DNA of 4,928 nt from UHGV virus genome UHGV-2078699, one strand, 5' to 3'. The stretch's first letter is position 1, and each line of letters starts with the position of its first letter. The notes under the pieces were generated by a model, which was not told where the DNA came from, made no database searches, and saw only the letters and a list, made by a program, of their open reading frames with translations. The translations under genes were made by a program, and so were the position numbers. Positions 1 to 4,928 of this stretch are shown here, piece by piece. Origin of the DNA: a virus.

Positions 1-23
1 GGATTCGATTTTCGCAGCGGCCT

Positions 24-56
24 TTTCAACATAACGAGTCGTACATTATGCGCACC
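24..56 (-). other. dif-like XerC/XerD recombination site (putative prophage attachment junction), atypical spacing
   Basis: The minus strand reads GGTGCGCATAA-TGTACGACTCG-TTATGTTGAAA. The first 11 nt are identical to the XerC arm of E. coli dif (GGTGCGCATAATGTATATTATGTTAAAT, recalled from memory). The last 11 nt match the XerD arm TTATGTTAAAT at 9 of 11 positions. The two arms are separated by 11 nt rather than the canonical 6. Confidence 0.4.
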
Positions 57-94: not shown

Positions 95-328
95 TCATTG
101 GTCACAGACCGTAATCCACTGGCCCAGGACGTCTTTCAGGCAATGTTGGCATAAATCCAGTTTTAAGCGATTACTGTCACCAAAAATTGAACCGTATCCA
201 GCTAAGTGATTAACAGACAGAAACTCATTGAACTCAATGTCATCTACCACCGTCTTCGCATGGCGACCACAGCGATCGCAGGTCTTCGCACATAACATTA
301 CAGTATCGCTGGATGTGAAAAATTGCAT
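95..328 (-). CDS. hypothetical small Cys-rich protein, zinc-ribbon-like (77 aa)
   Basis: ORF with ATG at 328..326 preceded by a strong SD (GAGGAGA, 5-nt spacer). The protein has C13-x3-C17-x2-C20 and C61-x2-C64 plus C75, i.e. two CxxC knuckles about 40 residues apart, typical of a zinc ribbon. A loose resemblance to YgiT/MqsA-type zinc-finger domains is from memory only. Confidence 0.5.
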   Translation of the reverse strand: MQFFTSSDTVMLCAKTCDRCGRHAKTVVDDIEFNEFLSVNHLAGYGSIFGDSNRLKLDLCQHCLKDVLGQWITVCDQ

Positions 329-774: not shown

Positions 775-834
775 GTCCATTTGATGGATAGCGAGCAGGG
801 CTTACGCACCTACCCGCTATCCATCAAAGTGGAC
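775..834. promoter_or_regulatory. long hairpin overlapping the gene IV stop codon (candidate terminator / packaging-signal-like element)
   Basis: GTCCATTTGATGGATAGCG (775..793) pairs with CGCTATCCATCAAAGTGGAC (815..834), giving a 19-bp stem with one bulged G and a 21-nt loop. The gene IV stop codon (824..826) lies inside the right arm. In Ff phages the packaging-signal hairpin begins immediately after gene IV. Confidence 0.45.
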
Positions 835-2089
835 GAATGATATGTGCTGTAAGCAAAATATACATAATACGCTGTTCATTGCTGTCTGCCTTGCTACTGA
901 AAATCCAGCCTATAAGAGGAATTTTACTTATAACTGGAACTGAACGCTCGGCATTGCTGAACGATGAATCGATAAGCCCCCCCAATAACAACGTCTGACC
1001 ATCCTTAATCTGGACTGTCGTCTGAATCTGGCGCTGATTAGTAATAATATCGGATGCCTGATCATCATTGCTGATTGAATCAGCGCGAGTGTCGATAGTC
1101 AGAACTAGTTGCCCGTTACCCATGACAACAGGCGTTACCTTGAGAGAAACGCCAACATCATGACGCTCGATAGTCTGAAACGGATTATTTACCCCGGCAG
1201 ATTCGCCCGTTACCTTTCCGGTGATAAACGGCACATTCTTACCTACGGAAATGTAACCAGTCTGACCAGACTGAGTAAGAATACGCGGCGTTGAAATCAC
1301 CTTAGAGCGTGAATTACTCTGGACAGCACGCAGAGACAGCGCCAACACGTTACCATCAAAAATACCAAAAGAACCGCCCGCCGTAGAAAGAGCGCTACCC
1401 AGTGCAGAAGTATTAAAGCCCCCCGCAACCTTATGACCGGATGCAGAACCTGCCGCAAACGATAAATCAACGCCATCAGACAAGCTGGTTTCAAACATCA
1501 GCGACTGAATGAGAACCTGATCGCGGGCAACATCCACAGAATTGATAAAATCGGACAGAACCGGCAGCAGCTCGTCAGGCGCAGAAACAATCAGCGAGTT
1601 ATTGCCTGGATAATCCACGACATTACCACCACCATTAGAATCAAGATAAATTTTAATCAGTTGCTGAACATCGGACGATCTAACTTTTGTCAGCTTAAAA
1701 TTTCTGACCGTAAGCGCCACAGGTACTGGCTGGTAAGATGGCTCAGAAGGAAAAGTATCATAAGACTGGTTATCAGAATCATCGGAATCCGAAACCATCT
1801 GTGAAGGTAATTTAGACGGCAAAGAGACTACCGCAGGATTGCCAGAAAGCATGACAAAACCGTTAGCATTCAGAACAGACTTAAAGAAATCATCAATATT
1901 TGTTGGATTAACATCAGCATTAAATACGGTTACGTTTCCTTTAATATCAGGATTAACAATAACAGGCTTGCCAGTTTTTGAAGAATACCACTGAACAAAT
2001 GAGCGAACAGATGAATTATTTAAATTAACAGTTTCAGCAGAAACGCAGAATGAATAGGCAAATAAAAAAGCAACAATAACAGAGCGCAT
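824..2089 (-). CDS. gIV: filamentous-phage gene IV protein (pIV outer-membrane secretin)
   Basis: The translation aligns along its length with M13/fd pIV as recalled, e.g. VPFITGxVTGESAxVNNPFQTIER, DGQTLLLGGL, IPLIG..FSS and a C-terminal ...RPL. The ATG at 2089..2087 is preceded by AGGAG and gives an N-terminal signal peptide MRSVIVAFLFAYSFCVSA. The 31 codons the ORF track adds upstream (to 2182) overlap the gene I 3' end and are rejected as the start. Confidence 0.92.
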   Translation of the reverse strand: MRSVIVAFLFAYSFCVSAETVNLNNSSVRSFVQWYSSKTGKPVIVNPDIKGNVTVFNADVNPTNIDDFFKSVLNANGFVMLSGNPAVVSLPSKLPSQMVSDSDDSDNQSYDTFPSEPSYQPVPVALTVRNFKLTKVRSSDVQQLIKIYLDSNGGGNVVDYPGNNSLIVSAPDELLPVLSDFINSVDVARDQVLIQSLMFETSLSDGVDLSFAAGSASGHKVAGGFNTSALGSALSTAGGSFGIFDGNVLALSLRAVQSNSRSKVISTPRILTQSGQTGYISVGKNVPFITGKVTGESAGVNNPFQTIERHDVGVSLKVTPVVMGNGQLVLTIDTRADSISNDDQASDIITNQRQIQTTVQIKDGQTLLLGGLIDSSFSNAERSVPVISKIPLIGWIFSSKADSNEQRIMYILLTAHIIRPL

Positions 2090-2096
2090 AATAATA

Positions 2097-2471
2097 TTAC
2101 TCCTGACAGGTAACAGTCTGTAAATAACGGCCTTTTCTAATAACAACACGACAGGCATCTTTAATATCAACGGAATAACCATCTTTAATCAAATCAAAAT
2201 ACTGATATTTCATACCTTTTGCATCAACAAACGTAACGGAAACGTCAAAGCCAAGTTGTGAAAAAGAATTAATAGAAAGTCGGGGTAAGTCACTGGACGA
2301 ATCAGGCGTTACCGCCCTCGCCTGTTCAGCATAAGCAGATTTAATAGCTGAGATTTCATCAACATTCTTTCCAGACTGGAGCCAGAAACCAAACGCAAGC
2401 CCCAGCGCCAAAAAAGAAAGCATTAATATAAGACGGTTCGATTTGCGAAAATAAATTTTAGTGAGGCGCAT
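2097..2471 (-). CDS. gXI: putative gene XI protein (pXI / pI*), in-frame internal start within gene I
   Basis: An in-frame ATG at 2471..2469 is codon 241 of gene I, the same residue index as the pXI start in M13 as recalled (MKLTKIY there, MRLTKIYF here). It lies just N-terminal to the TM segment, with an AGAGGA SD-like element about 12 nt upstream. Confidence 0.5.
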   Translation of the reverse strand: MRLTKIYFRKSNRLILMLSFLALGLAFGFWLQSGKNVDEISAIKSAYAEQARAVTPDSSSDLPRLSINSFSQLGFDVSVTFVDAKGMKYQYFDLIKDGYSVDIKDACRVVIRKGRYLQTVTCQE

Positions 2472-3191
2472 ATAATAATTAAATCCTCTGTGAACAGAAA
2501 ATTGACCGTGCGTGATAAATGGTGGCAAAAGCGAAAATGCGCCATGAGGATAATTATCTGTGAACGCTTGTTTGGTATTGTAAGCAGAATAAAGAGATTT
2601 TCCTGTATATATCCATTTATCAACAGTGATTGAATTAACATTATCACCATATTTGACAATGCCAAAGTGTACCTTTGGTAAAGAAAATCTCGCTCCTGAA
2701 ACCAAATTCATAATGGAGCCAACAAAAGGAATGTTTAATTTATCTGAACGGCGACAATAAACAACATGCTCAGCAAGCGCCAGACGAGCTTGCTTATCCA
2801 TTATCGAAATATCCTGAATCAAAAATATAATATCCCAGCCTAATTTTCTGGCATGTAAAAACCAGTCAATAACAGGTTGTCTGTCTTTATCACCCCATGA
2901 GCGGGAATTAAACCAAGTACCACATTCATCAAGTACAAGGAGGCCATTACGGGATTCATCGTAAGATGTATTCCCAATACCAATAGCAAGTAAATCATTT
3001 AATGAAGGCTTGTCAGGAATGCGAATAACGCGCGTTTTTTTCGCATAACGCCCAACCATAGGCATATTATGCAATTTAAGATCAAGATTAGTGGCAACAG
3101 GACAACCCTTAGCAAGTCTTTCCTGTATTCTGGAAACACTAACAAGTGTCTTGCCTGAGCCTAATTTGCCTGTTACTACATAAACCGCCAT
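2097..3191 (-). CDS. gI: filamentous-phage gene I protein (pI assembly ATPase, Zot-like)
   Basis: N-terminus MAVYVVTGKLGSGKTLVSV with Walker A GKLGSGKT and Walker B-like LLVLDECGTWF. Roughly 70% identity by eye to M13 pI as recalled (IDWFLHARKLGWDIIFL, ALAEHVVYCRR). A single TM segment LILMLSFLALGLAFGFWL lies near residue 255. The ATG at 3191..3189 directly follows the gene VI stop (TAAATG), with SD AGGGTGA. Confidence 0.95.
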   Translation of the reverse strand: MAVYVVTGKLGSGKTLVSVSRIQERLAKGCPVATNLDLKLHNMPMVGRYAKKTRVIRIPDKPSLNDLLAIGIGNTSYDESRNGLLVLDECGTWFNSRSWGDKDRQPVIDWFLHARKLGWDIIFLIQDISIMDKQARLALAEHVVYCRRSDKLNIPFVGSIMNLVSGARFSLPKVHFGIVKYGDNVNSITVDKWIYTGKSLYSAYNTKQAFTDNYPHGAFSLLPPFITHGQFSVHRGFNYYMRLTKIYFRKSNRLILMLSFLALGLAFGFWLQSGKNVDEISAIKSAYAEQARAVTPDSSSDLPRLSINSFSQLGFDVSVTFVDAKGMKYQYFDLIKDGYSVDIKDACRVVIRKGRYLQTVTCQE

Positions 3192-3533
3192 TTAAATCAC
3201 CCTGTTTGCATAATCAAGAAATTTTTGTTTTAAATCGAAAACAAAAACACTGATACGAGTAACCATAATAACGTTAACACACGCCTGAAAATGGTCAGGC
3301 AGTACAGACGCCATTAAATGGGAGAAATCAGCAGGTAAACCGTTGTACATGACCTCAGCAAGGTACTGCATTAAAAGCGTAACAGTTGTTGTAATTAATG
3401 CGACCAATGCAAAGGCGATTAATCCTGTTCTGGTAGCAAGTCGAGCTAAAAAACTCGCCACATAGCCAATAAACAAAGGAACAAGACCAATAAGAAAACG
3501 CAACAATGCAGGAATACCTAATAATAAAGGCAT
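3192..3533 (-). CDS. gVI: filamentous-phage gene VI protein (pVI minor coat protein)
   Basis: 113-aa hydrophobic protein MPLLLGIPALLRFL...FVFDLKQK, matching M13 pVI (MPVLLGIPLLLRFL...IFIFDVKQK, recalled). The ATG at 3533..3531 shares one nucleotide with the gene III stop (TGATG). The ORF track starts one codon earlier at a GTG, which I do not favour. Confidence 0.88.
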   Translation of the reverse strand: MPLLLGIPALLRFLIGLVPLFIGYVASFLARLATRTGLIAFALVALITTTVTLLMQYLAEVMYNGLPADFSHLMASVLPDHFQACVNVIMVTRISVFVFDLKQKFLDYANRVI

Positions 3534-4067
3534 CACTCACCCCCTTTGCGAAGCAATGAAGTTAAAGAAGTAAAGACATACCAGAACGTAAGGCAATAAA
3601 AAACCCATGAAAGAACATCTTTAATAGTCAGTAATTTATCGCAACCAATATCAATCTGATAAACCTCTCCGGGAAAAATAATAAAATCAGAGCAGCCGTT
3701 ACCATTGGGTAAATTAGGCAGCATAGCACCTTTATTTAAAAATGCTTCCCATAAAGCACCGTGAGAATCCTTTTCAATTCCCAATTCAGAATCAGCTAAA
3801 GTAGAAGCGCCATCTAATTCAGAGTCGCCCTTTCCATAACGAGAATCACCACCTGAAGGGTCAGCAAAACGGCCAGCCCCCCGCGTAAGATTGTTAATGG
3901 AATCGTCAAGACGATTTATATTATTCCTGGTTTGTTCATCGGCATTTTTTTTATCATCTGATGAAGTGTCTTTCTCCGTTAATTTATCATGAATATCGCT
4001 GGCTATTTTGGGTGAAGCACCTTCGATCGCAGACTGAATATCACCTTTAGAAAGACTGGAACCACTA
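3533..4067 (-). pseudogene. gIII: gene III (pIII) C-terminal fragment, interrupted by IS630 insertion
   Basis: The C-terminal roughly 175 codons resemble the pIII linker and C-terminal domain (NGNG, IDIGCDK vs M13 SIDCDK, hydrophobic anchor YVFTSL, terminal LLRKGGE vs ILRNKES). Upstream of about 4068 the frame continues into antisense IS630 sequence and the N1/N2 receptor-binding domains are absent. The 5' boundary is approximate, about 5 nt either way. Confidence 0.8.
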
Positions 4068-4928
4068 AATAGCTGCGCGGAATAGTAGATCACTGAAAGG
4101 GAACTCAGCCCGGATTGTGCGATCTGATCAATCGCCAAACCAACCAAAATCACCAACCGGACTGAGCGATGCCGATCATAGTACCAATACCCCGTGGCGA
4201 ACGACGCCTGATGCAGAAAGCTATTCATAAAACGCGTGATAAAAATCATGCCCGCAGACTCACGGCCATGCTGATGCTTCATCGGGGTGAACGGGTCAGC
4301 GATGTTGCCAGAACTCTCTGTTGTGCCCGTTCATCCGTTGGTCGCTGGATTAACTGGTTTACGCACTCAGGTATTGAAGGCCTGAAATCCTTACCCGCAG
4401 GGCGCTCCCGACGCTGGCCTTTTGAACATATCTGCACCCTGTTACGTGAGCTGATAAAGCATTCTCCCGGCGATTTTGGTTATCAACGTTCACGCTGGAG
4501 CACCGAATTACTGGCAATAAAAATCAATGAGATAACCGGTTGCCAGTTACATGCAGGAACCGTTCGCCGCTGGTTGCCATCTGCGGGGCTTGTATGGCGC
4601 AGGGCCGCGCCAACTCTGCGTATCCGTGACCCACATAAAGATGAAAAGATGGCGGTAATCCACAAAGCGCTGGATGAATGCAGCGCAGAGCATCCGGTAT
4701 TTTATGAAGATGAAGTGGATATCCACCTTAATCCTAAAATCGGTGCGGACTGGCAGTTGCGCGGACAGCAGAAACGGGTAGTGACGCCGGGGCAGAACGA
4801 AAAATACTATCTGGCCGGCGCACTGCACAGTGGCACGGGTAAAGTCAGCTACGTGGGCGGCAACAGCAAAAGTTCAGCGCTGTTTATCGCTCTGCTGAAG
4901 CACCTGAAAGCCACTTACCGGCGGGCGA
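4068..4928 (+). mobile_element. IS630-family insertion sequence, left end and most of transposase (partial; continues beyond window)
   Basis: The sequence encodes a transposase matching IS630 as I recall it. GC content rises sharply relative to the AT-rich phage genes (sampled 60-nt lines are about 33% GC in gene IV and about 70% in the transposase). The left boundary is placed after a CTA at 4065..4067, consistent with IS630 inserting at CTAG with TA duplication. The exact inverted-repeat end is not verified. Confidence 0.8.
4169..4928 (+). CDS. IS630-family transposase (Tc1/mariner-like DDE), 3' truncated by the window edge
   Basis: Plus-strand frame open from the ATG at 4169 to the end of the window (253 codons): MPIIVPIPRGERRLMQKAIHKTRDKNHARRLTAMLMLHRGERVSDVARTLCCARSSVGRWINWF (N-terminal HTH) ... 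DPHKDEKMAVIHKALDECSAEHPVFYEDEVDIHLNPKIGADWQLRGQQKRVVTPGQNEKYYLAGALHSGTGKVSYVGG. It is missing from the supplied ORF track, presumably because no stop codon falls inside the window. Confidence 0.9.
   Translation, partial: MPIIVPIPRGERRLMQKAIHKTRDKNHARRLTAMLMLHRGERVSDVARTLCCARSSVGRWINWFTHSGIEGLKSLPAGRSRRWPFEHICTLLRELIKHSPGDFGYQRSRWSTELLAIKINEITGCQLHAGTVRRWLPSAGLVWRRAAPTLRIRDPHKDEKMAVIHKALDECSAEHPVFYEDEVDIHLNPKIGADWQLRGQQKRVVTPGQNEKYYLAGALHSGTGKVSYVGGNSKSSALFIALLKHLKATYRRA

Follow-up and report, generated by a model that had tools for sequence, protein, structure and literature searches.

A hairpin overlapping the end of gene IV in a UPφ prophage is a probable orthologue of the IKe and I2-2 packaging signals

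The hairpin that overlaps the end of gene IV in the filamentous prophage described here is very probably a packaging (morphogenetic) signal, orthologous to the signals of phages IKe and I2-2 and, by analogy with them, expected to work as one. This reading is supported by the position of the hairpin, its sequence homology, a shared motif, covariation in the stem and a strand bias in folding. That this phage would require the hairpin for encapsidation, and that the hairpin would direct the process, are carried over from Ff and IKe. The window analysed is a stretch of 4,928 nucleotides from the virus genome UHGV-2078699, to which unlabelled coordinates refer. Because all of the phage genes lie on the window minus strand, that strand is the phage plus strand. 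The features discussed below are listed in Table 1.

Table 1. Coordinates of the hairpin, its parts and the neighbouring genes in the window
Feature	Coordinates	Strand	Basis or remark
Probable packaging-signal hairpin, whole	775..834	- (phage plus strand)	Folds, inverted repeat, alignment with the IKe and I2-2 signals
Ascending (5') limb	809..834	-	Outer helix 834-830, bulged C 829, main stem 828-809
CGGGT…GGTG motif, CGGGTAGGTG	807..816	-	In the ascending limb; common to IKe, I2-2 and f1
Apical loop GTAA	802..805	-	Closed by a GC/GC clamp; bulged T 808 adjoins
Descending (3') limb	775..801	-	I2-2 nucleotide homology stops within this limb, at 786
Gene IV stop codon TGA	824..826	-	Base-paired within the stem
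Gene IV, outer-membrane secretin pIV	824..2089	-	Pfam Secretin, E 6e-43; annotated in L001, a near-identical prophage, as a CDS of 1266 nt
Gene I, Zot-type assembly ATPase pI	2097..3191	-	Pfam Zot, E 6e-41
Gene VI	3192-3536	-	DUF5455
Gene III remnant	3533-4069	-	Cut by an IS630-family insertion from 4070 on
orf102, by position 'h1' of UPφ phages (PMC7307601)	446..754	-	Start codon 21 nt downstream of the hairpin
orf77, by position h2 of UPφ phages	95-328	-	Small ORF

The prophage that carries the hairpin

The window belongs to an I2-2/IKe-like (Lineavirus-like) prophage integrated at dif, and is a member of the published UPφ group, an assignment made by its match to the description of that group (PMC7307601). 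UPφ phages are I2-2/IKe-like, integrate in tandem at dif, carry two uncharacterised genes, h1 and h2, where IKe, I2-2 and M13 are intergenic, and have reverse-oriented ORFs next to dif (Shapiro & Putonti 2020, PMC7307601). The gene order, tandem units, identity to I2-2 and IKe, and attP of the present prophage agree with this description. Of 5426 complete E. coli genomes, 49 contain near-identical DNA. In strain ECONIH2, tandem units of 8344 bp lie beside the ydeQRS-fimbrial region, the site of dif, and the order within a unit is gII-gV-gVII-gVIII-gIII-gVI-gI-gIV-orf102-orf77-attP, then four reverse-oriented ORFs. The structural genes share 65-71% nucleotide identity with I2-2, IKe and PEar1, and gene II matches I2-2 only. 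The partner genes found in the prophage family are those for pVII, pVIII, pIII, pVI, pI and pIV. CUS-1/Ypfφ was considered as the identity of the prophage, given integration at dif, tandem copies and two ORFs beside att, and was dropped; the I2-2 and IKe matches fit UPφ, of which only genes II and V resemble Ypfφ (PMC7307601). Release of phage DNA, though not new infection, has been demonstrated for the group (PMC7307601).

The copy in the window is interrupted. An IS630-family insertion sequence with HTH_32, HTH_33 and DDE_3 domains occupies 4070-4928 and splits gene III. The intact prophage L001 is collinear with the window only as far as 4069, and the ORF listed at 3533-4282 is therefore the C-terminal part of gene III joined to sequence from the end of the insertion element. 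This copy alone cannot make pIII, and since gene III is cut at 4070, it could be packaged only with the help of a tandem or co-resident copy. Copy number is uneven across E. coli genomes, with a median of 2 places per genome and up to 16-17 (for example EC5502), and a few of the places sit on plasmids. Four public assemblies labelled as Candidatus Nanosynbacter (L003), SAR11 (L009), Actinomadura (L012) and Paenibacillus (L022) also carry enterobacterial filamentous-phage DNA, L003 with a gene IV that is 100% identical and L009 with M13 sequence; contamination or mis-binning is the most likely source.

Structure of the hairpin

The preliminary description had placed a hairpin at 775-834, and an inverted repeat is present there with strict arms at 780-799 and 809-828. 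It ranks second by strength among the inverted repeats of the window. When positions 770-840 were folded as ssDNA, the energy was -21.1 kcal/mol for the window plus strand (z -7.8) and -24.5 kcal/mol for the minus strand (z -8.7); the corresponding RNA folds gave -36.9 kcal/mol (z -8.9) and -46.4 kcal/mol (z -9.8). In all four folds the real energy was better than that of each of 200 dinucleotide shuffles. The hairpin lies far outside chance expectation.

The two strands differ in the shape that they adopt. The 19-bp stem with a single bulge and a 21-nt loop given in the preliminary description is correct for the window plus strand, which folds into 19 bp with one bulge and a top that is large and for the most part open. 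It does not describe the minus strand, on which the genes lie. There, two G·T pairs close the top, and the result is a stem of 27 bp with a bulged C, a bulged T and a loop of only 4 nt. The 21-nt loop was thus a consequence of reading the non-functional strand. The reported overlap with the end of gene IV stands: the hairpin starts 8-10 nt ahead of the stop codon, and the ascending limb takes in the last three gene IV codons (..R P L) together with the stop. A search of Rfam returned only miRNA-precursor models far below threshold (27.5 bits compared with a gathering score of 100), which are generic hairpin matches.

Homology to known packaging signals

The hairpin was compared with the elements annotated in related phages. 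In the GenBank record of IKe (NC_002014) gene IV runs to 6151, and the label 'stem loop structure pot. transcription termination, morphogenetic signal' is given to 6141-6196; in that of I2-2 (NC_001332) gene IV runs to 2273, and a 'morphogenetic signal' is placed at 2260-2330. The overlap of the window hairpin with the gene IV stop matches that of these two elements, the annotations of which rest largely on analogy with Ff. In blastn, homology with I2-2 is unbroken from gene I through gene IV and into the hairpin (window 3047-786 to I2-2 31-2310, 69%), and IKe and PEar1 match over window 789-866. The upper stem is almost identical in the alignment, reading GCGGGTAGGTGCGTAAGCCCTGCTCGC in the window, CCGGGTAGGTGCGCTAGCCCTGCCCG in IKe and GGGGTAGGTGCGTTAGCCCTGCCCC in I2-2, and CGGGTAGGTGCG..AGCCCTGC is near-identical across all three. 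The Ff signal carries CGGGT closely followed by GGTG on its ascending limb (Russel & Model 1989, as cited in bioRxiv 10.1101/2023.12.30.573655). The same arrangement is found on the minus strand of the window at 816-807, and M13 has GGCGGGTGTGGTGG at the matching place. Scores from a covariance model for the annotated members are not independent of these comparisons, as the same sequences trained the model. The alignment with the IKe and I2-2 signals, together with the compensatory changes and plus-strand stability described below, supports the earlier suggestion of an Ff-type packaging-signal homologue 3' of gene IV.

The I2-2 signal, like the window hairpin, starts within the last gene IV codons and has a near-identical upper stem (GGGTAGGTGCGT.AGCCCTGC), a bulged T before the GC clamp, a GNNA loop and G·T pairs confined to the plus strand. 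It differs in the lower stem, where several pair differences are compensated, and is one base shorter beside the stop codon. About 760 nt of non-coding intergenic sequence follow the signal in I2-2, whereas in the window an ORF begins 21 nt later; I2-2 also does not integrate, unlike the window prophage (PMC7307601). The IKe signal and the same element in the Erwinia phages PEar1-6 likewise overlap the gene IV stop, and they share the plus-strand bias and the upper stem (CGGGTAGGTGCG..AGCCCTGCCCG). Internal loops, however, break up the lower stem of the IKe signal, which differs in sequence; the fold of this signal is weaker (-18 to -20 kcal/mol, compared with -24.5 in the window), and the replication origins, not genes, come after it.

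Hairpin A of the Ff phages (f1/M13/fd) is again a long imperfect hairpin directly 3' of gene IV, with the motif on its ascending limb and greater stability on the plus strand (-29.9 versus -24.1). It is longer than the window hairpin, cannot be aligned with it beyond the motif, and starts after gene IV rather than within it (M13 gene IV ends at 5500). The function of the Ff signal depends on orientation and involves pVII/pIX and pI (bioRxiv 10.1101/2023.12.30.573655; PMC10175506). Integrative Xanthomonas phages (φLf-UK and others) also need a cis-acting ssDNA hairpin for encapsidation, but their signals have stems of 7-8 bp within 20-26 nt, are independent of orientation, depend on essential loop bases and lie mostly within the replication gene (bioRxiv 10.1101/2023.12.30.573655). 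The window hairpin is of the Ff/IKe type and not of the Xanthomonas type. The folded attP(+) of CTXφ is likewise a plus-strand ssDNA hairpin with a function in cis in an integrating filamentous phage; it differs in being built from two inverted dif-like sites around an unpaired centre, whereas 775-834 has no dif-like sequence.

Conservation of the stem and strand bias

The preliminary description had proposed looking for covariation in relatives, and the stem proved to be kept through compensatory changes. In L002 (LSN03-016011/A), with a gene IV that is 87% identical, a hairpin lies at the same place. Compared with the window, its 20-bp stem has seven pairs changed on both sides, one changed on one side and one lost, and L098 shows 2 further both-side compensatory changes. 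When pairs were counted outward from the apex in 11 distinct variants, approximately ten stem positions had at least two Watson-Crick types, for example AT/GC, GC/TA, CG/GC, GC/CG/TA and AT/GC/CG. The loop varies (GTAA, GTGA, GTTA, GCTA, GCCA and GTTAA) and the two closing GC pairs and the bulged T are constant. The hairpin occurs once per phage unit and was found in these phages only. As far as sequence comparison can tell, the stem is maintained in evolution for its structure over its sequence.

These variants were collected by a pattern scan of viral contigs (L087-type, L098/L111, L091/L100/L129 and L103) and a genome scan (Izhakiella, L004). The viral-contig scan yielded 43 loci, of which approximately 15 were true homologues and the rest chance matches without a hairpin. 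The covariance-model search was run with a cut-off of 1e-8; at E ≤ 1, opposite-strand matches were mixed in. A MAFFT alignment misplaced the L002 group in the 3' limb, where it was out of register, and a covariance-model realignment and a per-sequence pair table were used besides. For the 12 distinct variants in the model-fitted alignment, covariation scored 0.311, compared with 0.154 ± 0.016 for shuffled alignments (0 of 500) and a maximum of 0.163 among slid controls, figures that are supportive and not a probability, because the alignment is imperfect (it pairs only 72.6% of cells, with the L002 group and the lower stems of the IKe group out of register) and the shuffle control overstates independence for variants that are phylogenetically related.

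More distant relatives in Xenorhabdus, Photorhabdus, the 'Actinomadura' contig and Halomonadaceae were kept apart from the covariation analysis. With gene IV approximately 50% identical, L007/L008 (Xenorhabdus bakwenae), L010/L011 (Photorhabdus) and L012 ('Actinomadura' contig) have a long hairpin containing G·T pairs at the gene IV stop or up to approximately 20 nt past it, of 27 bp in L007/L008. These hairpins cannot be aligned with that of the window, and the tops of L010 and L012 share CTGCGCAGCGGGGGGA; they are probably the packaging signals of further lineages. The Halomonadaceae relatives of gene IV had no obvious hairpin right after the gene.

Folding of both strands as ssDNA and RNA, with IKe and M13 for comparison, had also been proposed, and it favoured the plus strand of a real hairpin in every case. 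In each of the 12 variants the plus-strand fold is more stable than that of the complement by 3-10 kcal/mol, which is a computational proxy for orientation, and the hairpins of M13, IKe and I2-2 have the same bias. G·T pairs occur at no fewer than five different stem positions in different lineages, and no A·C opposition was seen on the plus strand. Such a bias is predicted for selection acting on plus-strand ssDNA or on sense RNA and is unexpected for a site in duplex DNA. In both Ff and IKe the packaging signal works in one orientation only, as stated in bioRxiv 10.1101/2023.12.30.573655.

Alternative functions of the hairpin

An RNA element would share the strand bias, and the hairpin might act mainly as a terminator, attenuator or 3' stabiliser of the gene III-VI-I-IV transcript. 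A role of this kind may set the level of read-through into the accessory orf102 and orf77, and it is compatible with packaging. The great stability of the sense-strand RNA hairpin is in keeping with it, as are the mention of transcription termination in the IKe record, a tail, AUUAUUGAUU, that is moderately U-rich, and the finding of no sigma-70-like promoter between gene IV and orf102. This last result also places the hairpin inside any transcript that reaches orf102, so that it must be read through. Against termination, a terminator scan made no call at the hairpin and the U-run is interrupted; a G+C-rich stem directly followed by a U-run, as in an intrinsic terminator, was found neither by the scan nor in the tail, and the tail is not conserved. 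Relatives that keep the hairpin lack a T-rich tail, with CCCCTGAAC in L098, GAACCAGA in L002, TCTCCGTG in IKe and CCCCTGACC in I2-2. Because the orf102 start, 21 nt downstream, is preceded by a Shine-Dalgarno sequence (GGGG) of its own and no promoter was found, read-through is the simpler reading. In f1, a Rho-dependent terminator has been reported after gene IV, and termination of this type needs an untranslated C-rich rut region; the position of the orf102 start leaves little untranslated RNA after the window hairpin. A terminator would also leave unexplained the conserved CGGGT…GGTG and the homology to packaging signals. The terminator or RNA-stability alternative raised in the preliminary description therefore finds little support in the sequence, and a mainly RNA-level function is doubtful; in part, the hairpin may still attenuate or stabilise the transcript.

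The other explanations are considerably weaker. A minus-strand (complementary-strand) replication origin, primed by RNA polymerase or primase on the entering ssDNA, might be sought in a long, plus-strand-biased hairpin within the former intergenic region, and the minus-strand origin hairpins of Ff and IKe do come after the packaging signal. In the alignments, however, the counterparts of the window hairpin are the morphogenetic signals of IKe and I2-2, not the minus-origin hairpins of IKe (6333-6385 and 6410-6438), and no -35/-10-like pair was found within the window hairpin, which makes an origin at this site very unlikely. It is scarcely credible that the hairpin is a substrate for Xer recombination, whether as part of a CTXφ-like folded attP or as another integration site. 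The phage does integrate at dif using a folded hairpin, but the window has a single dif-like site, at 29-56, with the exact XerC arm GGTGCGCATAA, and the real attP hairpin is a separate structure approximately 720 nt away. Equally hard to credit is a chance palindrome or a functionless host repeat. Hairpins do arise by chance, but not readily with z scores of -7.8 to -9.8 that 200 shuffles failed to match, and neither compensatory changes in relatives nor a single occurrence per unit, restricted to these phages, would be expected of one.

The region downstream of the hairpin

Similarity among UPφ variants, and between them and I2-2, stops within the hairpin or directly after it, and different small ORFs follow. 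Between UPφ variants, identity is 57-60% over the 300 nt after the hairpin, which is background, compared with 68-86% over the 300 nt before it (loci: window ~775-821; L002 8606-8960; and the sequence past the hairpins of L098, L091, L100, L103 and L004). Megablast matches to divergent relatives begin at window 821. In these alignments the hairpin forms the edge of a variable cargo slot; in CTXφ, ctxAB is carried in the corresponding position. A further proposal, that the hairpin acts as a fixed boundary for the swapping of accessory cargo and also as an RNA gate on read-through from the morphogenesis operon, we regard as improbable. If it were true, one DNA/RNA element would couple virion assembly, module exchange and the dosage of accessory genes.

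Pfam searches with orf102 and orf77 gave sub-threshold matches only, and a cluster look-up gave 'hypothetical protein' names from a noisy cluster. The exact orf102 and orf77 proteins are present on more than 1000 contigs of E. coli, Salmonella and Klebsiella. Two CxxC pairs in orf77 (C15/C18 and C61/C64) and a sub-threshold zinc-finger match suggest that its product may be a small zinc-binding protein.

Several other elements were seen in this part of the prophage. The attP is a CTX-type forked hairpin, found whole in L001 (11960-12060); the window begins inside its loop, and window 1-56 forms the right arm. Its inverted dif-like sites, GGTGCGCATAA / TTATGTTGAAA opposite GGTTCGCACAA / TTATGCTAAAG, flank an unpaired central region, and a perfect 10-bp stem, GGCCGCTGCG, with a 12-nt loop forms the top. 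On the phage plus strand its folding energy is -31.2 kcal/mol (z -7.6), and the exact E. coli dif XerC arm is at window 46-56. A second strong hairpin, with 20-bp arms and a 5-nt gap (z -6.8), lies at 400-444, 1 nt past the orf102 stop. L002 has this hairpin as well (8518-8562), with several compensatory changes and behind a different cargo ORF, and the top is nearly conserved (AAAACTTGCTTTT in the window, AAAACTTGTTTTT in L002). No T-run adjoins the 400-444 hairpin, and BLAST gave no similarity to the origin regions of IKe or I2-2; it may be a minus-strand origin or a terminator. In L001, a 34-nt stretch at 10680-10712 is 91% identical to I2-2 intergenic sequence at 2666-2699. It lies between two reverse-oriented ORFs, approximately 370 nt upstream of gene II, and may be a conserved origin element.

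Discussion

The role that we propose for the gene IV hairpin follows the model for Ff. In that system, pV covers the new plus strand except for the signal hairpin, to which the C-terminal ends of pVII and pIX gain access for recognition at the pI/pXI complex, and pV is exchanged for pVIII during extrusion through pIV, with the hairpin end first; pI is part of the machinery that receives the packaging signal (PMC10175506). By analogy, the plus strand of the UPφ phage (the window minus strand) would be made as circular ssDNA and coated by pV, and the self-paired 27-bp stem would stay uncoated and protrude at one end. At the inner membrane the stem would be recognised by the pVII/pIX tip proteins and the pI assembly complex, and assembly and extrusion through the pIV secretin would begin at the hairpin end.

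The finding leaves the understanding of filamentous phage assembly as it was. For UPφ prophages, which occur in urinary and other E. coli, Salmonella, Klebsiella and Citrobacter, it supplies a concrete and testable cis element for encapsidation; the paper on the group mentions no hairpin, stem-loop or packaging signal (PMC7307601). In practical terms, the hairpin could be cloned to make phagemids packaged by UPφ, or deleted to give a non-transmissible prophage. The signal no longer adjoins the origins in these phages, because h1/h2, the CTX-type attP and the reverse-oriented module occupy the old intergenic region. A signal of the Ff/IKe type would thus have stayed with gene IV while accessory genes, attP and a regulatory module filled the old intergenic region.
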